Shown: positions 4,560 through 38,748 of the stretch, one piece after another | Layout of the letters: the number at the start of each line of letters is the position of its first letter | Numbering within the stretch: position 1 is the first letter of the stretch | Origin: a virus | Taxonomy: Duplodnaviria; Caudoviricetes | IMG/VR virus record: IMGVR_UViG_3300030372_003811 | Span: 1-63,301 of that record | Length of the DNA stretch: 63,301 bases | Direction: 5' to 3' (one strand) | The notes under the pieces: generated by a model | Databases searched by the model: none | The model's input: the letters and a program-made list of their open reading frames with translations, nothing else | Told to the model about the DNA's origin: nothing | Position numbers and translations under genes: made by a program

Positions 4560-4568
4560 GAGGTTTAA

Positions 4569-6860
4569 TTGCTTACAGAAATTAAGTTTGCTCCTGGAAT
4601 AGATAAACAAGACACAAGTGTGGGTGCCGTAGGACGTTGGGTTGATTCAGACCTAGCGAGATTTAGATATGGTCTTCCTGAAAAAATAGGTGGTTGGTCT
4701 TCTTTAATTACAAACACTATTGTAGGAGTAGCAAGAGGTCAATATGCTTTTGTTGATAAAGAAGGAAATAGATATGTAGCAATTGGAACTGATAAATTTT
4801 TACTTATTTATTTTGAAGGACAACTTTATGACATTACTCCTTGGGTAGATAATAATGCTGGAGCTCCAGTTACTTTTACAGGTGCTACTTTAGCTACAGA
4901 CAGTACTACTGTTAAAACTTGTACGATCACAACATCAGGTGCGCATAGTTTAAAAGCTGGGGATATTATAATGTTAGATTCCGTTACTCTTCCAGGAGGA
5001 ACAGGATTAGTAGCTAGTGATTTTGAAGATAAACTTTTTCAAGTTTTGACTATTCCTTCGAGTACAACATTTACAATTGATTCTTTAAATCAAGCTAGTT
5101 CAGTCGTGGGAAGTGGAGGAACTATGACGGTACAACCTTATGTTCATATTGGTCCTTCAGAACAATCTTATGGATATGGTTTTGGTGTAGGTAACTATGG
5201 AGGAACAGTTGCAGGAGCTCAACAATCTACGTTAGATGGTGCGTTGGCCGCGGATGCAAATGGTAACAATGGATCACCAAGTCAAATTCGTTTAGCTTCT
5301 ACAACAGGTTTTCCAACAGGTGGTGGAACGGTTGCAATTGAAGATGAATTAATAACTTACACAGGTGTGGTAGGAAATGAATTAGATGGAATTACCAGAG
5401 CAACAAATGGTACTCTAACTGCCATTCACAGTGATGGAACAACAGTTACTGATGCAACTGACTATGCCGGATGGGGATCAGCAGTCGAAGCTTCTAGTGT
5501 TCAATTAGAACCAGGACTATGGTCTTTAAGTAATTGGGGAGATGTTTTAGTTGCCACAATTGCTAATGGCAAAACTTATACATGGGACGCATCTGCTTCA
5601 GCAAGATTAAGTGTAAGAGCGTCACGACAAACTTTATCCGCAGGATCAAGTACTTTACAAAATTCAAGTTATTGGACAGGAACAGGAACCTATACCGCAG
5701 GAAATACTTTAGGAGCGCAAGCTAATGAAGCTGCGGGAAATCCTACAGCTTCAAGATTAACTTTAGTATCCCCTACTACTAGACACTTACTTCATTTAGG
5801 AACAGAAACAACTATTGGTGATACAACTACGCAAGATGATATGTTTATTAGATTTTCTAATGCCGAACAAATAAACCAATACACTCCTTTAGCTACTAAC
5901 TCTGCCGGTACTCAAAGACTTCAAGATGGGACAAAGATTATGGGAGCGTTAATTGCAAAAGAAAATATTTTGATATGGACAGATAATGCTTTGTACACAA
6001 TGAAATTTGTTGGAGCACCTTTTACATTTGGATTTGAACAAGTGGGAACCAACTGTGGATTGATTGGAAAAAATGCAGCCATTGAAATTGATGGTGTTGC
6101 GTACTGGATGTCTAATAATGGTTTTTTTGCATTTGATGGTACTGTTAATTCATTACCATGCAGTGTTGAAGATTATGTTTTTGATGATGTTGATACAACA
6201 AAAGGTCAACAAGTATGTGCGGGATTAAATAATTTATTTACAGAAGTGATTTGGTGGTATCCAAATTCAGGAGGAAGTTATAATAATAGATCAGTGGCTT
6301 ATAATTATGGAGAAGCAAAACAACCACCGCTTGGAACTTGGTATACAAATACTAATACTAATTTTAATAGAACAACTTGGATGGATACTTTAATTTATCC
6401 TCAGCCTTATGCGACAGCTTACGACAGCACTGGAACAGGAACTTTTCCTAGTATAATTGGTGAATCGGGATTAGGAAAAACTACATATTACGCTCATGAA
6501 ACGGGTACAGATCAAATCAATCCTGATGGATCTACAACAACTTTAGAGTCTTTTATTCAATCATTTAGTTTTTCTTTACAAGCTGAACAGAGTGAAGTAT
6601 TTTTAGCTATGAGAAGATTCTTACCTAACTTTAAAGTACTTACTGGAAATAATGAAGTAACAGTTGCGGTTACAGATTATCCGGCAACTAATGAAGTAGC
6701 TTCTACCTACAGTCCTTTTACAATAACTCCTACTACTCAAAAAGTAGACACACGAGCAAGAGGAAGATATGCAAATTTAAAATTATCTAATACTGCCGCT
6801 GGAGAAAGTTGGAGATTTGGAACTTTTCAAGTAGATATACAACCAGATGGAAGGAGATAA
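4569..6860 (+). CDS. Tail nozzle / DNA stabilization protein (P22 gp10 / tubular protein B-like)
   Basis: 763 aa; RFRYGLPEKIGGW, FIRFS, ends DIQPDGRR; podovirus context. Confidence 0.75.
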   Translation: MLTEIKFAPGIDKQDTSVGAVGRWVDSDLARFRYGLPEKIGGWSSLITNTIVGVARGQYAFVDKEGNRYVAIGTDKFLLIYFEGQLYDITPWVDNNAGAPVTFTGATLATDSTTVKTCTITTSGAHSLKAGDIIMLDSVTLPGGTGLVASDFEDKLFQVLTIPSSTTFTIDSLNQASSVVGSGGTMTVQPYVHIGPSEQSYGYGFGVGNYGGTVAGAQQSTLDGALAADANGNNGSPSQIRLASTTGFPTGGGTVAIEDELITYTGVVGNELDGITRATNGTLTAIHSDGTTVTDATDYAGWGSAVEASSVQLEPGLWSLSNWGDVLVATIANGKTYTWDASASARLSVRASRQTLSAGSSTLQNSSYWTGTGTYTAGNTLGAQANEAAGNPTASRLTLVSPTTRHLLHLGTETTIGDTTTQDDMFIRFSNAEQINQYTPLATNSAGTQRLQDGTKIMGALIAKENILIWTDNALYTMKFVGAPFTFGFEQVGTNCGLIGKNAAIEIDGVAYWMSNNGFFAFDGTVNSLPCSVEDYVFDDVDTTKGQQVCAGLNNLFTEVIWWYPNSGGSYNNRSVAYNYGEAKQPPLGTWYTNTNTNFNRTTWMDTLIYPQPYATAYDSTGTGTFPSIIGESGLGKTTYYAHETGTDQINPDGSTTTLESFIQSFSFSLQAEQSEVFLAMRRFLPNFKVLTGNNEVTVAVTDYPATNEVASTYSPFTITPTTQKVDTRARGRYANLKLSNTAAGESWRFGTFQVDIQPDGRR

Positions 6861-10290: not shown

Positions 10291-11691
10291 ATGAGCAGAA
10301 TTTTAAGACGTCCAATGTTTAGAGGCGGAGGAAAAATATCTAGTTACAATAAAGGTATTGCTTCGGGCTTAGGATATATGGGCGGAGGACCTATAAGTGG
10401 AGCAAGAGGTGGACAAATTGGTGGTGGTAGAATTGCTGGTTCATATTTTCCTGATGGAAGATATGGATTTGCTAACCCTGCTTTCGTTGATATGGGAGGA
10501 GGATCCAAAGTCCCTACTAAATCCGTAATTAATCAAGGTGGTAATATTCTTAAAAGAAATATAAATAGAATAAAAAATTTAGGAACTGGAAATTTAGAAT
10601 CTAGAATAGGTCAAGGTATTAAAGGTTTGTATAATTTGTTACCAGAAGAAGGATTACTGGCTAAAGGATCTAGATTTGTAACTTCACAACTTCCTAAAAC
10701 AGTTAAAGGCACTGGAATTTTAGCAGCAATAAGTGGTCCAGGAATGATTGCAGAAGCTAACAGACCTAAAACATATGCTGCATTACAATACATGAAAGAC
10801 ATGAATCAAAGTGGTGCGTTTGATGAGACTGCTATGCCAACTATGGATGGAGAATTAGGAGAATACGATCAATTTATGGTAGAGTTTAACAAATTAAATG
10901 ATCCGAGTAAATATTCAGCGATACCAGATGACAGAGGATTCTTTAACAAATACATTAATCCAATGGGTGCGCTTGTAGGAATATCAGGTGATAAAAGTTC
11001 TGCTGAAATTGAAGAGTTAGTAGATAAAGAAATTAAAAAAAATAAAGAACCTACAACAGAAGCAGAAGAAAATCCTGGCAAAGAAATTACTGTAAATACA
11101 GATGGAAGACCTAGTGAAACTGTTCTTTCTAGAAAAGAAAGATTAAAGAAAAAAGCTGATGAGTACCAAGAAATTTTAGGGGAGGGAATTAAAAAAGATT
11201 CTATCTTTGATGCAATGGTTGAAGGTGGTTCCAGATTATTAGAAGGTGAAGGATGGGGAGCAGCCGCAAGAGCCGCTAACAAATCTTTAGATCCAATACA
11301 AAATATTAAAACAGCTTCTAGAAAACTTGCACTAGAAGAAGATATAGCTTTAAAAAAAGCTATAGCCACAGCAGCATCTAAAAATACAGATATTAGTAGA
11401 AAAATTGACGCGATGAAAGCTGGGGGATATTCACCACAACAAATTGCCAATGCAATTGCGGGCATGAAACCAGAAACTTTAGGAGATAAGGTTGCTAAAC
11501 TTGGTAAAGTAGATGGCTATGCTGAATATGTTAAAGAAAATTTTGACATTCAAAGTGTGGTAAATTCTAAAACTGATTTATCAGGCTTACCTGAAGGCAA
11601 ATATTACATCGCAGATAAATTTACTATTGTAGAAATAGATGAGAATGGAAAATTAGTACCAGGAAGTAAACAAGTACTAAAACAATCGTAG
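10291..11691 (+). CDS. Putative internal virion protein
   Basis: MSRILRRPMFRGGG N-terminus; context. Confidence 0.55.
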   Translation: MSRILRRPMFRGGGKISSYNKGIASGLGYMGGGPISGARGGQIGGGRIAGSYFPDGRYGFANPAFVDMGGGSKVPTKSVINQGGNILKRNINRIKNLGTGNLESRIGQGIKGLYNLLPEEGLLAKGSRFVTSQLPKTVKGTGILAAISGPGMIAEANRPKTYAALQYMKDMNQSGAFDETAMPTMDGELGEYDQFMVEFNKLNDPSKYSAIPDDRGFFNKYINPMGALVGISGDKSSAEIEELVDKEIKKNKEPTTEAEENPGKEITVNTDGRPSETVLSRKERLKKKADEYQEILGEGIKKDSIFDAMVEGGSRLLEGEGWGAAARAANKSLDPIQNIKTASRKLALEEDIALKKAIATAASKNTDISRKIDAMKAGGYSPQQIANAIAGMKPETLGDKVAKLGKVDGYAEYVKENFDIQSVVNSKTDLSGLPEGKYYIADKFTIVEIDENGKLVPGSKQVLKQS

Positions 11692-19577: not shown

Positions 19578-20348
19578 ATGGCTAATGAAATAAAAGCTAA
19601 ACAAACAGGATCAGTTGCCTTATTTGGTGATGATCTTTCCAAAGGTTTTGAAAACATGACGCAAGAAGATATGGCGTTACCGTTTGTCAGAATCTTAGGA
19701 CAACTATCGCCGCAGGTAACTGATGGCGATGCAAAGTATGTAGAAGGTGCTAAACCAGGCATGATCTATAATACTGTTACCAGCGAATGTTTCGATGGTA
19801 AAAAAGGTATCAAGGTTATTCCTTGTTACTACAAAAAGGATTATCCGGAATGGTCGGATAGAGGGGACGGACCAGGTGCTCCAGTCGCAGTTCACTTACC
19901 GAACAGCCCAATAATCCAAACTGGTAAGAGAGATGGATCTAAAATAAGATTACCTAATGGTAATTATTTAGAAGAAACAGCCTCTTATTATGTTATGGTT
20001 GAAACAAAAGCAGGTGGAATGACACCAGCGTTGATTACTATGAAATCTACGCAACTTAATGTCAGTAAAAAATGGAATTCTATGATGAAAACCATACAAA
20101 TAGCTGATGGAAAGGGTGGTTTTGCAATTCCTCCAATGCATGGGGTGGTTTATACACTATCTTCAACACTACAGAAGAACGACAAAGGTTCTTGGTATGG
20201 TTGGGTTGTGGCTATGGATCGAATATTAGGACAGGAAGATAAGTCTTTATACCTAACGGCTAAAGATTTTAGAGGGAATGTCTCGAATGGAAGCGTGCAA
20301 ACAAAAGCTGATGTTGAAGAGAAAAGTAAAGATAGTACACCGTACTAA
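19578..20348 (+). CDS. Putative ssDNA-binding/annealing protein
   Basis: Between replication genes; KNDKGSWY; short acidic-aromatic tail (DSTPY). Confidence 0.55.
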   Translation: MANEIKAKQTGSVALFGDDLSKGFENMTQEDMALPFVRILGQLSPQVTDGDAKYVEGAKPGMIYNTVTSECFDGKKGIKVIPCYYKKDYPEWSDRGDGPGAPVAVHLPNSPIIQTGKRDGSKIRLPNGNYLEETASYYVMVETKAGGMTPALITMKSTQLNVSKKWNSMMKTIQIADGKGGFAIPPMHGVVYTLSSTLQKNDKGSWYGWVVAMDRILGQEDKSLYLTAKDFRGNVSNGSVQTKADVEEKSKDSTPY

Positions 20349-20358
20349 ATTTATTTTG

Positions 20359-20381
20359 AAGGGGATCGCAAGATCCCCTTT
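20359..20381 (+). terminator. GNRA-loop hairpin, likely terminator
   Basis: AAGGGGATC-GCAA-GATCCCCTT. Confidence 0.65.
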
Positions 20382-26828: not shown

Positions 26829-27043
26829 TTATAGAAACTGTTTTTGCGCTGCTTCTTATTGCTGATAATAAAATTATAGAACATCGTTACCACGAGTCGT
26901 TATCAAAATGCCTTAAAGGAAAGCGTTATGCTATGAGGGACAAATCATCTACCGATAGAGTTGTCTATCAATGCGTTAAATCGAAGGCAAACATTGAGAT
27001 ATATATGGGAGAGAAGAAAATTCTTTCATTAATCCTTGAATAA
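26825..27043 (+). CDS. Hypothetical protein
   Basis: Coupled ORF. Confidence 0.65.
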   Translation: MIIETVFALLLIADNKIIEHRYHESLSKCLKGKRYAMRDKSSTDRVVYQCVKSKANIEIYMGEKKILSLILE

Positions 27044-27191
27044 AAAATCATACGCATTTTTTCTTAAGAAGAACAGGCCCAGACGAAGACAGAATCCTGT
27101 CGCACAAGCACTAAACTTCTTTACACCTCAGGTAATTCCAGATAAAAAGAAATACAAACGTAAAGATAAACATGTCAAAAGATATACATAA
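27036..27191 (+). CDS. Small basic protein with ArfA-like motif, 51 aa (not in ORF track)
   Basis: TTG start; NPVAQALNFFTPQVIPDKKKYKRKDKH. Confidence 0.5.
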   Translation: MNKKSYAFFLKKNRPRRRQNPVAQALNFFTPQVIPDKKKYKRKDKHVKRYT

Positions 27192-27387
27192 AATTTTTCA
27201 AACAGAAGTAGTATCAGGTAGATGTGATGCATGTCACATGCATACATTGTTGGTGGGAATTAATAATACATTTTTTAGGTGTACAAATTGTGGAGAAGAT
27301 CTTGAACAAAAAGTTAATGGCGTAATAAAATATGTCGTTTCTAAAGATTTAGATAGTAGACCTCCGCATGTCAAAGAAAAAGAATAG
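27172..27387 (+). CDS. Zinc-ribbon protein
   Basis: CDAC...CTNC. Confidence 0.7.
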   Translation: MSKDIHKIFQTEVVSGRCDACHMHTLLVGINNTFFRCTNCGEDLEQKVNGVIKYVVSKDLDSRPPHVKEKE

Positions 27388-27523
27388 TCTTTACGGAAAA
27401 GTAGAACACGAAACCCGTGCGAAGTTTAAAAAGACGTCGCAATCGAAGCGTCGACCGAAAAAATCTTCAATGAACAAAAATAAAAAACGTCATTTTAAGG
27501 CGTACAACAGACAAGGAAAATGA
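27368..27523 (+). CDS. Small basic protein, 51 aa (not in ORF track)
   Basis: SSMNKNKKRHFKAYNRQGK*; ATGA overlap with the next gene. Confidence 0.6.
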   Translation: MSKKKNSLYGKVEHETRAKFKKTSQSKRRPKKSSMNKNKKRHFKAYNRQGK

Positions 27524-27789
27524 AAGTAGTAAGTTTAATATTATATATGTGTTCAACCGTAGCCAATACGTGTATGCCTCCGTATGTTTGGCCCACACAA
27601 TTTGGAAATTCATATGATTGTATGATGGCGGGATACGAAGAAGCCTTAAGAAAAACTCACGAAATTGGAGCAGAAGAAATAAATAAACATAAAATTTTTA
27701 TTAAATTTGATTGTATAGAATCTACGATAGTTATTCCTAAGAAAAAACCTCCAGAACAACCAAAACTTCAAACTTCATACCAAATATAG
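27520..27789 (+). CDS. Hypothetical Cys-containing protein
   Basis: Hydrophobic N-terminus and four Cys. Confidence 0.65.
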   Translation: MKVVSLILYMCSTVANTCMPPYVWPTQFGNSYDCMMAGYEEALRKTHEIGAEEINKHKIFIKFDCIESTIVIPKKKPPEQPKLQTSYQI

Positions 27790-27805
27790 GGGTGTTGCAA
27801 TAATA

Positions 27806-27868
27806 TCACACATAACTTGCCTGCCGTGAGTATGATACCCACGGCAAACAAAAGGTGTGAGAAGAGGT
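27806..27868 (-). ncRNA. Putative hairpin small RNA
   Basis: On the minus strand a 16-bp upper stem with three G-U pairs plus a 6-bp lower stem; own promoter immediately upstream. Confidence 0.65.
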
Positions 27869-27872
27869 CTAA

Positions 27873-27924
27873 ATAATATATTAAAAAAATAACCCTTGCA
27901 AGTATTGTTTTAATAGTATAGTTT
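27873..27924. promoter_or_regulatory. Divergent promoters sharing one palindromic -35 (TTGCAA, 27896-27901)
   Basis: Minus strand TTGCAA-17-TATTAT; plus strand TTGCAA-17-TAGTTT followed by CCCATA. Confidence 0.65.
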
Positions 27925-27967
27925 CCCATATATTAAGAATAAAAATAACAATGAAAGGTGTAAAAAC

Positions 27968-28147
27968 ATGGCTGATCCAGCAAAATTTAAGTCTGTCAGT
28001 GTGTCCATTACCACGTATAAAATATTAAATTTTTTACGGCAAGGTAAGATAACAGACGCAGATTTAACAATAAGTAAAGCAATTGAAAGTATAGCAAAAA
28101 AAGAGGCTAAAAAACATGGCTACAAAAACGGAAAAGCAGATAGCTAA
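27968..28147 (+). CDS. Putative ribbon-helix-helix transcription regulator, 59 aa (not in ORF track)
   Basis: AAAGGTG RBS; FKSVSVSITTYKILNFL...LTISKAIESIA has a strand-helix-helix pattern. Confidence 0.6.
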   Translation: MADPAKFKSVSVSITTYKILNFLRQGKITDADLTISKAIESIAKKEAKKHGYKNGKADS

Positions 28148-28298
28148 AATTATCTGTGATCAATGTAATGGTAACGGATTTACCAGAATCCCTTATTATT
28201 TAGCTAAAGAAGAAATCTGGGCGAATTGTGATAAGTGTGATTCACAAGGCGAAATAAAAATCAAAACTCCAGAAGATCTGAGAGAGAAGGGAATGTAA
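28116..28298 (+). CDS. DnaJ-type zinc-finger protein
   Basis: CDQCNGNG and CDKCDSQG. Confidence 0.75.
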   Translation: MATKTEKQIAKIICDQCNGNGFTRIPYYLAKEEIWANCDKCDSQGEIKIKTPEDLREKGM

Positions 28299-28660
28299 TG
28301 GCAATAGAAGTAGATAAACAATCACATAATCACCTTGAAAAAGGAGATTATAAACCTTTACCGGAAGAACTTTTTATTGAAGAAAGTTTAATAGATGGTC
28401 AAGGCTTATTCGCGGCTAAAGAAATAGCTGCTGAAACTGATTTAGGTATCACTCACTATGAAGTAGAGAAGGATGCAATGAGTCCAAAAATTTTAATTAG
28501 GACTCCATTGGGTGGCTTTATTAATCATAGCGATACACCAAATTGTGTGAGAGTAAAATCAAAACCTGATGGAAATATTTTTTCATGGACTTTAAAGACC
28601 ACTGATAAAATAGAAGCAGGTCAAGAATTGACTCTAAAATATAGCATGTACAGGCCGTAA
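28298..28660 (+). CDS. SET-domain protein (putative lysine methyltransferase)
   Basis: GQGLFA, FINHSDTPN, ELTLKY. Confidence 0.88.
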   Translation: MAIEVDKQSHNHLEKGDYKPLPEELFIEESLIDGQGLFAAKEIAAETDLGITHYEVEKDAMSPKILIRTPLGGFINHSDTPNCVRVKSKPDGNIFSWTLKTTDKIEAGQELTLKYSMYRP

Positions 28661-28665
28661 GTGTT

Positions 28666-29151
28666 GTGGGTGCAAATAAAAATAGCAAGAGGCAAGCATT
28701 TAAAGATTGGACCTATAGAAATACTAAGCGAGGTTTTATTGTGATGAAGATTAGTTCTGTTTTTAAACCGAGTAATCTTAAACTCAGGGAAGGAAGAAAT
28801 ACAAGGTGGGCTCCGAATTGTACTAAAGAAGATATCTATCAAAAATTAATGAATCATATTATCATTATGAAAGAAAGATATCCTGACACTGATGGCTACA
28901 TATGTCATTACTGTAAATCTCCTTGGACTTTTAAAACAAACTTTACTGAAAGAAAAACAAATAAAATAAGTAAAAGATCTAAGATGGATCCTAGTAAAGA
29001 TAAAAACTTTTCAATTGATAGATGGGATCCCACCATCACTTATGATATTGAGAACATAAGATTCTGTTGTCTTGGATGTAATAATAGAAAGTCAAGTTCT
29101 ACTCCTTTGGATTGGAAAAATTTTCAGGAAGCAAAAGATGACCTTGGATAA
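28666..29151 (+). CDS. HNH-like endonuclease
   Basis: CHYC, SIDRWD, NIRFCCLGCNNRK. Confidence 0.7.
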   Translation: MGANKNSKRQAFKDWTYRNTKRGFIVMKISSVFKPSNLKLREGRNTRWAPNCTKEDIYQKLMNHIIIMKERYPDTDGYICHYCKSPWTFKTNFTERKTNKISKRSKMDPSKDKNFSIDRWDPTITYDIENIRFCCLGCNNRKSSSTPLDWKNFQEAKDDLG

Positions 29152-32249: not shown

Positions 32250-32390
32250 TATACGTTAATGACCAATTAGTAGGCGTCCATGTTATGCTTCGCGCTTTCC
32301 TCTGTACGTTAGCAATGACCTGAAAGGGTAGCAACCAACGTTGGCCGGTTACCACTGCGTTCTTTGATCAAGATGGTGGTGCCGCGTATA
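32250..32390. ncRNA. Putative multi-stem structured RNA
   Basis: TATACG/CGTATA closing helix, ACCT-GAAA-GGGT, ACGTT/AACGT, ACCAC/GTGGT. Confidence 0.45.
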
Positions 32391-35554: not shown

Positions 35555-35640
35555 AACTTCTCACTCCTTTTAATACTCTTATATAATCCCATACATTTAA
35601 ATGTCAAGAATTTAATTTGCTTGACAGCTTGGGCCCCTCA

Positions 35641-35663
35641 TGTTACCGGGCGGGCCCACCCAG
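35641..35663 (+). repeat. GC-rich dispersed repeat, copy 1
   Basis: TGTTACCGGGCGGGCCCACCCAG. Confidence 0.85.
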
Positions 35664-35723
35664 CTCGAGCGCTTGATCGCTTGCTCTCTTTTAATTTTTT
35701 TTACTTTAGAATCATTCTAAACT

Positions 35724-36406: not shown

Positions 36407-36431
36407 TTTTCACTCCTTTGTTTATATAGTT

Positions 36432-36480: not shown

Positions 36481-36512
36481 ATATTCCTGTTTACGGGCGG
36501 GCCCACCCCAGA
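36481..36512 (+). repeat. GC-rich dispersed repeat, copy 2
   Basis: ATATTCCTGTTTACGGGCGGGCCCACCCCAGA. Confidence 0.9.
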
Positions 36513-36570: not shown

Positions 36571-36597
36571 TATGTTAAAACAAACAAAAGGAGTGAA

Positions 36598-37611
36598 ATG
36601 AGTAAAATAAGAATGAATACCGAATTTAGAAATAAGATTTTAAATCGGTATGTTGAAAGTGCAGAAGATGAAAACACGCAAGAACGAGAGGCATTTTTTC
36701 AAGCAAGAGAAGATGTGGACAAGGCATACTTGGTTGCGTTTCCGCTTGCACAACAAGTTGTTTCAAGGTCTTACCCACAAGAAGATGTTGACCTATGTAA
36801 ATCTCTTAAAAGAAAATATGGGGAACCTTTAGACGTTGTTGCAAAAGATAAATGTTTTTATTTCTCTTATGCTAAAGAAAACCTAGAAGAAGATGAAGAT
36901 GAAAGGGACAGAAATGTATCTGAACATTTTGACTTTGGTCTTTATGGAGATATATCTGATAACAATTATGGTAATAATAATGAGGCAAAGAAATTTGCTT
37001 ATGCTTATTGTCGTGAGGGATTAAAAGCTAATGACTTAAATCCAGATATTCTTGCACAACAAAATGGCAAAGATGATAACCCACACAAAACTAAACACAT
37101 TGACTTAAATGATAAGTTTTTAGGTTATAGTGGTTATTCTTCTTATAATTCTGATGATGATAATAATACTAAAGCAGTTAAAGATTTTGATAGTAAATAT
37201 TATTTAGATATTATTGGAACTAGCCATTGTCGTTCAAGAACTATTGCTTGTACTAAAGACGAGTTTCAAGTTTTTAAAATGTTGAAACAAGCAAAAGCAA
37301 ACGTCATTACTTGCCACCAAAAATGGATTGATAGCATTGAAAAACAAAAACAAGCTATGAAAACTGGCTTAAAGGCATACAGATATTTAAGCGAGGGTGT
37401 TGAGTTGATGAAAGAGTTGGGAGTTGAACTTGATGAGGCAGAACTTGTCAGATGTAATTCAACAGGCTTAACAATCTACAATCCTCAAAATCTTGCTAGT
37501 ATGATTAAAGGTATGAAAAATACTACTATGACAAGAGAGCAAAAGATTGCGATTAGAAAGGAATACGAGGCAAAACAACAAGAAGAATATGCCTATAAAG
37601 ATATAAATTAA
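36598..37611 (+). CDS. Early hypothetical protein (337 aa)
   Basis: Start moved to the ATG at 36598 after the promoter and AAAAGGAGTGA. Confidence 0.8.
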   Translation: MSKIRMNTEFRNKILNRYVESAEDENTQEREAFFQAREDVDKAYLVAFPLAQQVVSRSYPQEDVDLCKSLKRKYGEPLDVVAKDKCFYFSYAKENLEEDEDERDRNVSEHFDFGLYGDISDNNYGNNNEAKKFAYAYCREGLKANDLNPDILAQQNGKDDNPHKTKHIDLNDKFLGYSGYSSYNSDDDNNTKAVKDFDSKYYLDIIGTSHCRSRTIACTKDEFQVFKMLKQAKANVITCHQKWIDSIEKQKQAMKTGLKAYRYLSEGVELMKELGVELDEAELVRCNSTGLTIYNPQNLASMIKGMKNTTMTREQKIAIRKEYEAKQQEEYAYKDIN

Positions 37612-37614
37612 CTA

Positions 37615-37652
37615 TTGACTTATGGGATAATCTATATTAGATTATCCCATAA
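37615..37652 (+). promoter_or_regulatory. Early promoter overlapped by a palindromic operator
   Basis: TTGACT-17-TAGATT; TTATGGGATAATCTA-TAT-TAGATTATCCCATAA. Confidence 0.8.
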
Positions 37653-37669
37653 TAAACAAAGGAGTGAGA

Positions 37670-37933
37670 ATGAAACTAGATGATACGTTAAATGTTGGTA
37701 CAAAGTTTATAATTACTTATAGACCTTTTACTCATAATGGCGAAGAACGAAAAAAGCTAAAAGACGGAAAGCGAACTAGACAGATAACTAGAAAGGCACA
37801 ATGGACCGATAAGTGCAGAATAGTAAGGGACAAGGTATCTGATAAAATTAGATATATGACTTACTATGACTTAAATCAAAATGGTTATCGTTGCGCGACT
37901 GGGCAAATCTGGATAACTGCCGGAGTACAATAA
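37670..37933 (+). CDS. Early hypothetical protein
   Basis: ATG at 37670 after AAAGGAGTGAGA. Confidence 0.7.
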   Translation: MKLDDTLNVGTKFIITYRPFTHNGEERKKLKDGKRTRQITRKAQWTDKCRIVRDKVSDKIRYMTYYDLNQNGYRCATGQIWITAGVQ

Positions 37934-38301
37934 TGAAATATTGTCAAGGTCCTTTGTGTCATACTTACGACACAAAGGATAGGAAACGTGGACCAAAAGG
38001 AAACAAAGTAAATCAAACTAGAAGAAGAAGTAGTTTTTATTATTTAAGTGGGAACGCGTGTAATACTCAATGCGAGCGCGACTGGTTTGAAAAATTTGGG
38101 GAACGCGCTTTGGATTACTTTGGCAGAATAAATAAACCAATAGTATTGACCGAGAATAATGCTTGGTCCAAACGACATAGGTGGAGTTGGAACAGGGGCG
38201 ATAATCAAGCAGAACACTTTATTTATAATATGGTTACAGGCGAAGAAAGGGATATAACTGAACAACAATATAATGATAATAATTATACATTAAACACTTG
38301 A
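37933..38301 (+). CDS. Early Zn-binding hypothetical protein
   Basis: CQGPLCH...CNTQC; TAATG coupling. Confidence 0.7.
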   Translation: MKYCQGPLCHTYDTKDRKRGPKGNKVNQTRRRSSFYYLSGNACNTQCERDWFEKFGERALDYFGRINKPIVLTENNAWSKRHRWSWNRGDNQAEHFIYNMVTGEERDITEQQYNDNNYTLNT

Positions 38302-38334
38302 CATAGTTTAAATGATTTGTTAGATTATCCCATA
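38298..38334 (+). promoter_or_regulatory. Early promoter plus TCCCATA box
   Basis: TTGACA-17-TAGATT-ATCCCATA. Confidence 0.75.
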
Positions 38335-38347
38335 ACAAAGGAGTGAT

Positions 38348-38716: not shown

Positions 38717-38748
38717 ATATTCCTGTTAACGGGCGGGCCCACCCCAGA
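38717..38748 (+). repeat. GC-rich dispersed repeat, copy 3
   Basis: ATATTCCTGTTAACGGGCGGGCCCACCCCAGA; 31/32 identical to copy 2. Confidence 0.9.

Follow-up and report, generated by a model that had tools for sequence, protein, structure and literature searches.

The lambda OOP RNA and the P22 Sar RNA are short phage RNAs, each running from its own promoter to a terminator hairpin, that pair with phage messages and overlap their target gene on the opposite strand. The c4 RNA of phages P1 and P7 and the CI RNA of P4 are cut from longer transcripts and serve prophage immunity, acting in trans through two short segments on short boxes upstream of the regulated gene. In enterobacteria the small RNA (sRNA) SgrS, a host RNA that depends on Hfq, pairs inside pldB and controls yigL, and there are CU-rich sRNAs that resemble the anti-Shine-Dalgarno (anti-SD) sequence, among them the UCCC-motif RNAs of Staphylococcus and the CCUCCUCCC-loop RNAs of alpha-proteobacteria. 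To our knowledge, hardly any small regulatory RNA has been described from lytic marine phages. Here we describe a putative small RNA gene at positions 27806 to 27901, read from the minus strand, of the IMG/VR virus record IMGVR_UViG_3300030372_003811, a genome record of 63,301 bases that is rated complete; this whole stretch is called the window below. Comparison across relatives has shifted the likely target of the RNA away from the best match in the single genome. If the account given here is true, it provides an RNA regulator that is conserved and has both a defined seed and a defined candidate site, and so a testable handle on the timing of phage gene expression; what this might mean for infected ocean bacteria is a matter of speculation.

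The RNA gene and its conservation

The gene lies in an intergenic gap of 178 bp, between plus-strand open reading frames (ORFs) that end at 27789 and start at 27968. An earlier note made from this DNA alone had placed minus-strand promoter elements, a CU-rich block and a hairpin in this gap, and all of them were found where it put them:

27896..27901: -35 hexamer TTGCAA, palindromic, common to the minus-strand RNA promoter and a plus-strand promoter; its TTG is highly conserved
27873..27878, minus strand: -10 hexamer TATTAT of the RNA promoter, with a 17-nt spacing from the -35 hexamer; the geometry is conserved
27845..27866, minus strand: CU-rich 5' block of 22 nt, DNA CTCTTCTCACACCTTTTGTTTG, as RNA CUCUUCUCACACCUUUUGUUUG
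27816..27852, minus strand: hairpin of 17 bp that is probably the terminator and the structural body of the RNA (from fold, terminator scan and covariation)
27806..27815, minus strand: 3' tail UUAUGUGUGA (from the fold)

A 17-nt pattern taken from the block matched at least 120 IMG/VR contigs, and the 116 instances with enough flank gave 101 unique versions of 150 nt; all counts out of 101 refer to these unique versions among the matches listed. The 22 nt of the block are identical in every one of the 101, including the 5 nt that lie outside the search pattern, which bears out the functional 5' region that the earlier note had assigned to a minus-strand RNA. The same layout of promoter, block and hairpin was seen in all rows inspected among the matches listed, and the block is also intact in six loci that were gathered via their proteins (L080, L141, L158, L173, L194 and L236). 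In 023Pt_psg01 (MW574966.1), the nearest deposited relative, the block is exact and the stem sequence is wholly different yet still pairs; a T run follows the hairpin on the minus strand. In positions numbered from the start of the block, the TTG at -35 to -33 is conserved at 96-100% and the following CAA at 84-91%, the hexamer being TTGCAA in 76 versions, TTGTCA in 11 and TTGCAT in 8. At the -10 hexamer the first position (-12) is T in 100/101 and the second (-11) is A in 98/101, and the remaining positions are A/T-rich. This geometry, with its 17-nt spacing, places the +1 on the first invariant base of the block. Directly after the stem, the first base is U in 81/101 versions and the second in 92/101.

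The fold of the minus strand over 27790-27870 has an energy of -31.9 kcal/mol (z -5.78, equalled by 0/200 shuffles), against -23.1 kcal/mol (z -2.13) for the plus strand. The earlier observation on the strand of the hairpin stands, with four G-U pairs in the minimum-energy fold in place of the three then counted. A consensus scan scored the minus-strand hairpin from 27852 to 27816 as terminator-like, with one such site seen against 0.3 expected. In the folds nt 1-15 of the RNA are mostly unpaired and nt 16-22 make up the 5' side of a weak lower stem; in the window RNA, the tail GUGUGA is able to pair with nt 7-12 (UCACAC) and to form an extra outer helix. The hairpin is found in all 101 versions and begins near nt 16 of the block. 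The minus-strand form is the more stable of the two in 98 versions, both are equal in one, and the plus-strand form is the more stable in two (mean difference -7.95 kcal/mol). G-U pairs average 2.31 per hairpin on the minus strand and 0.01 on the plus strand. Its loop reads UUUCUU in 50/101 versions.

Covariation points the same way. In an ungapped subset of 40 sequences both sides have changed at 8/15 pairs, and 93.8% of the cells are paired, against 80.3% in shuffles and 41-49% with a slid partner. From this subset we built a covariance model, which aligned 100 matches (80 distinct rows), in which 12/15 pairs have changed on both sides, with 175 double-change cells and 91.4% of cells paired against 73.0% in shuffles; on every measure the observed value was reached by 0/500 shuffles. 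At three pairs of the lower stem 41, 16 and 22 of the 80 rows are unpaired, the 5' side being invariant while the 3' side varies. As the 5' side does not change although its partner is frequently unpaired, the formation of the hairpin is no explanation of this invariance. The model finds a single copy per genome, which in the window lies at 27812-27866 (54.7 bits). There is no conserved reading frame: of the six, none is open in more than 24 of the 101 versions, and stops interrupt every one of them in 77 or more. We have little doubt that the locus is a conserved, strand-specific, non-coding RNA gene.

Searches of other collections returned few copies. At the locus, Rfam release 15 gave no family at gathering score, and E-values up to 10 gave snoRNA-type chance matches of 11-18 bits. 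Among all 50,697 phage records, blastn with 27800-27935 found the block in 023Pt_psg01 only; megablast with 27400-28400 and a search with an exact 30-nt hairpin pattern gave no match. The covariance model found no copy in bases 1-30000 of HTVC027P (best 7.6 bits) or in bases 1-50000 of HTVC023P (best 9.4 bits), so that the published HTVC027P transcriptome cannot test the RNA. A scan of prokaryote genomes with the 22-mer gave one match, at 4560-4581 of a 6110-base contig (L300) in a metagenome-assembled genome (MAG) labelled Winogradskyella, a flavobacterium; this contig is probably a binned phage piece.

As to the phage itself, nearly every long ORF of the window lies on the plus strand, and Pfam identifies a family A DNA polymerase, a UvrD-type helicase, a primase, a large terminase and an SU10-type portal. 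In its portal protein the phage shares 78% identity with 023Pt_psg01 and 62% with Pelagibacter phage HTVC027P, which puts it in, or close to, the HTVC023P-type group. This group accounts for about 7.6% of viromic reads according to PMC12753301. We found no prior description of a pelagiphage sRNA in the literature searched, and the main texts, as distinct from the supplements, of PMC12753301 and PMC9599517 make no mention of small or non-coding RNA.

In two of these relatives the surroundings of the locus differ in ways worth recording. HTVC027P (L126) has a minus-strand protein gene, gp20, at the position of the RNA (11295-11576), divergent from a similar plus-strand promoter. In 023Pt_psg01 (L001) about 400 nt without an annotated gene (~1210-1617) adjoin the RNA copy, and directly past the RNA hairpin there is a minus-strand promoter-like site, TTGACA-17-TATATT-TCCCATA. 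In the window a full-length match to the Flavobacterium-1 RNA (Rfam RF02976) is found at 32263-32385 on the plus strand, with 68.6 bits against a gathering score of 58.9. We considered whether the non-coding stretch beside the RNA in 023Pt_psg01 is another such RNA and rejected this, as the loci of seven relatives gave no Rfam match.

T1, a candidate target site

The best-supported partner of the RNA is a bipartite site, here called T1, near the end of a gene 7.5 kb away:

20298..20321, plus strand: T1, CAAACAAAAG-CTGATGTT-GAAGAG with an eight-nucleotide middle (N8), complementary to RNA nt 13-22 and nt 1-6
19578..20348, plus strand: Pam3_gp34-like gene (PF23977, E 9.9e-70), with T1 in codons 241-248
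20361..20378, plus strand: GC-rich hairpin between the gp34-like and primase genes, followed by TTTAC, with 6/9 pairs double-changed among 8 sequences

T1 stands 25 nt ahead of the stop codon of the gp34-like gene and upstream of the primase gene. It was compared in five genomes, the window, 023Pt_psg01, G001 (95% complete), G002 and G004, where the duplex at 20287-20322 has energies of -20.1, -22.1, -21.6, -21.3 and -21.6. T1 is the sole window match that reaches -20 or better in all four other genomes, in surroundings of 196 nt that are 73-80% identical, and it ranks first among the non-self duplexes in three genomes, third in G001 and sixth in the window. Of the gp34-like loci fetched, 80/80 have a T1-like site, as do six more divergent contigs. 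Across 68 unique sequences of the gene, 49/257 third codon positions are invariant; in the T1 arms it is 5/5, and in the unpaired middle 0/2. The string CAAACAAAAGC is tied for the longest invariant run of the gene, and the lone change in a T1 arm, seen in one divergent contig, is an A to G opposite a U of the RNA, which keeps the pairing. None of 100 shuffles of the window yielded a second bipartite match, and of 2000 shuffled 22-mers one had such a site in the window and none had it in all five genomes.

The consensus fold of the region around T1 leaves the site unpaired. A conserved structure of the messenger RNA was rejected as the cause of its conservation, as this fold holds the downstream hairpin only; the hairpin at 20361-20378 itself fails the terminator rule. 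A second site, in the 5' coding region of the primase gene, was also rejected: it reaches -18.4 and -20.0 in two genomes, but only -10.6 to -12.3 in the window, G001 and G004. In HTVC027P and HTVC023P the homologous gene has no T1, and the searched parts of these genomes gave no RNA copy. For the gp32-34-like proteins, PHROGs and Pfam gave no function.

Taking these observations together, we propose the following course of events. Host RNA polymerase would start the RNA at the sigma-70-like promoter, giving a minus-strand transcript of perhaps 50-60 nt, from about 27866 to about 27806-27814, built from a CU-rich 5' end that stays unpaired, a hairpin whose lower stem is weak and rich in G-U pairs, and a short tail of U. 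The comparison of sequences suggests that this RNA probably acts in trans by base pairing, and the chances that T1 is a true target appear about even to us. At T1, nt 1-6 of the RNA would pair with GAAGAG and nt 13-22 with CAAACAAAAG. This pairing may lead to decay or processing of the message of the gp32-34-like operon, or alter the read-through into the primase, helicase and polymerase genes. A trans-acting small RNA with T1 as its best-supported partner is, as a whole, the explanation towards which we incline, if by no great degree. More tentatively, we can imagine an undescribed sRNA family with an invariant 22-nt seed in many HTVC023P-type members, in which the -35 hexamer shared with the divergent promoter would work as an either-or switch, pairing in the 3' end of the leftmost gp32-34-like operon would time the hand-over to primase, helicase and polymerase, and single lineages would add genes by way of complementary leaders; this fuller picture is possible rather than probable.

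A number of points speak against the reading as a trans-acting RNA with T1 as its partner, and they begin with the promoter and the terminator. The promoter-driven hairpin RNA of the earlier note is upheld by the conserved promoter and the covarying stem, while in the window alone the promoter match does not exceed chance (27500-28100 holds 3 promoter-like sites, where a consensus scan with shuffled control expects 3.4), so that the promoter owes its credibility to its conservation in relatives; even there, position 6 of the -10 hexamer (-7) is T in only 60/101. The U tail is short, with a run of at least three U in only 36/101. As to expression, the public runs are assembled contigs; those from 2/3 RNA libraries touch 26870-27083, 27377-27432 and 28631-28785 and none touches 27800-27900, which is uninformative on an RNA of 55 nt. 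As to the pairing, the two-strand fold of the window RNA with T1 keeps the hairpin closed and only CUCUUC pairs (dimer -38.3, separate strands -27.6 plus -6.1), so that the 10-bp helix needs the lower stem to open. Such an opening is favoured by the fact that the 3' side of that stem varies and is often unpaired while the 5' side never changes. The invariance of nt 7-12 (UCACAC) is accounted for by T1 only in part. T1 lies in coding sequence, where another constraint may be at work, and as the seed never varies, a test by compensatory changes is impossible. The co-occurrence of RNA and T1 tracks phylogeny, and three T1-bearing loci end 7.4-8.0 kb downstream, short of any RNA copy.

One further observation on the public runs concerns run X2, whose type is unrecorded. 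Its summed contig depth over 27805-27871 is 14,021, against tens to hundreds in many nearby bins; this peak fits a block that is common to many related phages and is no measure of expression.

Competing explanations

The earlier note had the RNA silence the whole early regulon through a leader shared by the early genes. The leaders in question, and the operon that diverges from the RNA gene, have these parts:

36581..36602, plus strand: lineage-specific leader with a 19/22 match to the seed complement, spanning the Shine-Dalgarno (SD) sequence and ATG of the 36598 gene
35557..35571, minus strand: lineage-specific leader of a GP88-like gene, 14/15 match, duplex -19.1
37654..37670, plus strand: lineage-specific leader, gapped match, duplex -17.7
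37610-37656, 38293-38339, 35558-35593 and 36407-36425, both orientations: promoter-leader cassettes, GATTAT-CCCATA and then AAACAAAGGAGTGA, the "shared leader" of the earlier note
27919..27930, plus strand: -10 TAGTTT and CCCATA (discriminator and start) of the divergent promoter; TTGCAA-17-TAnnTT-CCCATA recurs in the relatives inspected and in other promoters of the window
27968..28147, plus strand: first gene of the divergent operon, 59 aa (MADP...), with an SD sequence AAAGGTGT that matches 8 nt of the seed

The leader matches listed in the earlier note were all found, at the identities it gave, and the one at 36581 exceeds chance, since two matches with three or fewer mismatches arose in 0/100 dinucleotide-shuffled copies of the window. 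Three leaders stand out by their duplexes (-19.1, -19.0 and -17.7; the next is -16.4), although they pair with a generic anti-SD probe at only about -11. A main job of blocking ribosome binding on a shared early-gene leader, over the SD sequence and start codon, would fit these values. But the regulon-wide effect did not hold up. Only 3 of about 101 crudely called gene starts stand out, and with the small-gene block at 26-39 kb as a stand-in for the early genes, the leaders of small genes and those of structural genes score alike (Mann-Whitney p = 0.43). Glycine-rich coding stretches equal the leaders in raw duplex energy, which makes duplex energy alone weak evidence. The three top leaders are repeated, paralogous promoter-leader cassettes in an island at 35.5-38.4 kb, and the DNA of this island has no alignable counterpart in four RNA-carrying genomes (023Pt_psg01 and three others). 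Nor is the complementary leader kept across relatives: among 73 homologues of the 36598 gene with upstream sequence, it is complementary in one (L272, -21.5) and the others range from -5.5 to -15.2, and L236, which carries the RNA, has a non-complementary leader there (-7.0). For the 36598 protein, PHROGs and Pfam gave no function. As most carriers of the RNA are without these leaders, the leaders cannot hold the seed invariant. The leaders at 36581, 35557 (minus strand) and 37654 may be extra targets in this lineage. It is unlikely that blocking a shared early leader is the main job of the RNA, and we give a shut-off of the early regulon through shared leaders an equally small chance, then only as a lineage-specific addition.

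Two other repeats were seen in this region. A GC-rich direct repeat of 32 nt, with the core GGCGGGCCCACC, occurs in three copies (35634-35665, 36481-36512 and 38717-38748) in the otherwise AT-rich stretch at 34-39 kb, and a perfect 12-bp inverted repeat, TATGGGATAATC ... GATTATCCCATA, at ~37620-37651 overlaps a promoter -10 and is operator-like.

The leader of the divergent operon has a claim of its own. Across 82 unique relatives, the 5' untranslated region (UTR) of this neighbour operon pairs with the seed at a mean of -10.1, against -7.3 for shuffled sequence, and GAGAAG occurs in 28% of these UTRs, where it mostly lies 2-7 nt from the predicted start, but in 2.7% of 1888 control leaders. 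However, GAGAAG is found there in only 6/22 hairpin types and the counts are not phylogenetically independent, and when 34 adjacent leaders are set against the 1888 controls, the excess above generic SD strength is not significant (p = 0.12). The 5' UTR of the neighbour operon is a possible clade-specific target, with a pair of protein sites as the alternative. For the 59-aa protein, tblastn gave no match. At the level of DNA, the T tract in the spacer of each of the two promoters is the upstream A tract of the other, and from their common palindromic -35 hexamer we infer that the RNA promoter and the plus-strand promoter are probably mutually exclusive, competing for polymerase.

A second explanation places the function in the DNA. 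The block and T1 (CAAACAAAAG ... GAAGAG) would then be two sites for a DNA-binding protein of phage or host, in an operator or replication-origin element beside divergent promoters, and the hairpin would merely end a short divergent transcript. The five genomes each have two same-strand copies of the bipartite motif (four have it exactly twice, G2 has one exact copy and a variant); the block adjoins A/T tracts and two promoters, T1 adjoins replication genes, and in some clades TGAGAAGA is directly repeated on both sides of the promoters. Yet the half-sites are spaced by 6 bp in one element and 8 bp in the other, a difference to which pairing by RNA is more tolerant than a protein site would be. 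The block starts exactly at the predicted +1 and leads straight into a hairpin that has G-U pairs on just one strand, and the sole variant of T1 is compatible with a wobble pair. We hold this explanation to be quite improbable.

A third possibility, to which we give as little credit, is that the RNA acts in cis, either as an antisense or insulator RNA that pairs with plus-strand read-through or by promoter competition only, the block being kept for a protein, an RNA chaperone or the ribosome. Between 27789 and 27896 the scan gave no plus-strand terminator, so a read-through RNA would be complementary to it. The common -35 hexamer would allow the competition, the block can be likened to an anti-SD sequence, and the loop reads UUUCUU in about half the versions. 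But perfect pairing in cis constrains no sequence and leaves 22 invariant nucleotides unexplained, as it does the conservation of synonymous sites in T1 at 7.5 kb, and the window copy is without the UUUCUU loop.

Lastly, a host message or stable RNA as the target, with T1 coincidental or secondary, is doubtful: a conserved host partner would impose an invariant block on phages whose proteins differ by 10-40%, but the scan of prokaryote genomes, which covered matches to the whole 22-mer and not shorter or imperfect ones, returned the one 6.1-kb MAG contig, most likely a phage piece.

Comparison with known systems

We return to the trans-acting RNA with T1 as its candidate partner, and to the systems with which it can be compared. 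The RNA is neither a cis-antisense RNA nor a plain terminator, it does not code for protein, and Rfam has no family for it. The locus overlaps no gene on the opposite strand, as an RNA of the OOP or Sar type would, and for a plain terminator there is no minus-strand gene upstream, while the invariant 22-nt block and the conserved promoter precede the hairpin. Like OOP and Sar, it appears to be a short phage RNA that runs from its own promoter to a hairpin and pairs, if the candidate is right, with a phage message; unlike them, it sits in an intergenic gap (27790-27967), with its best candidate target 7.5 kb off, and its phage is a relative of lytic-type podoviruses rather than a classical temperate phage. 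With the c4 and CI RNAs it would share the pairing in two separate short segments upstream of a candidate regulated gene, whereas it has the look of a primary transcript from a promoter of its own, and no lysogeny module was seen in its surroundings.

The other two comparisons are with bacterial sRNAs. Pairing in the 3' part of the upstream cistron, with an effect on what becomes of the downstream gene's message, is the way of SgrS, pldB and yigL, a geometry that fits T1, the hairpin and the primase gene; SgrS, for its part, belongs to an Hfq-dependent host system. An unpaired C/U-rich motif that resembles the 3' end of 16S rRNA is found also in the CU-rich sRNAs of Staphylococcus and the alpha-proteobacteria, and three leaders of the window and the SD sequence of the neighbour gene fit such a motif; here, however, conservation points to a partner other than a ribosome-binding site, the motif lies at the 5' end and not in loops, and a UUUCUU loop is seen in only 50/101 versions. 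In its build, and in the action that this build makes likely, the RNA thus resembles both the regulatory RNAs of phages and the small RNAs that carry their seed at the 5' end.

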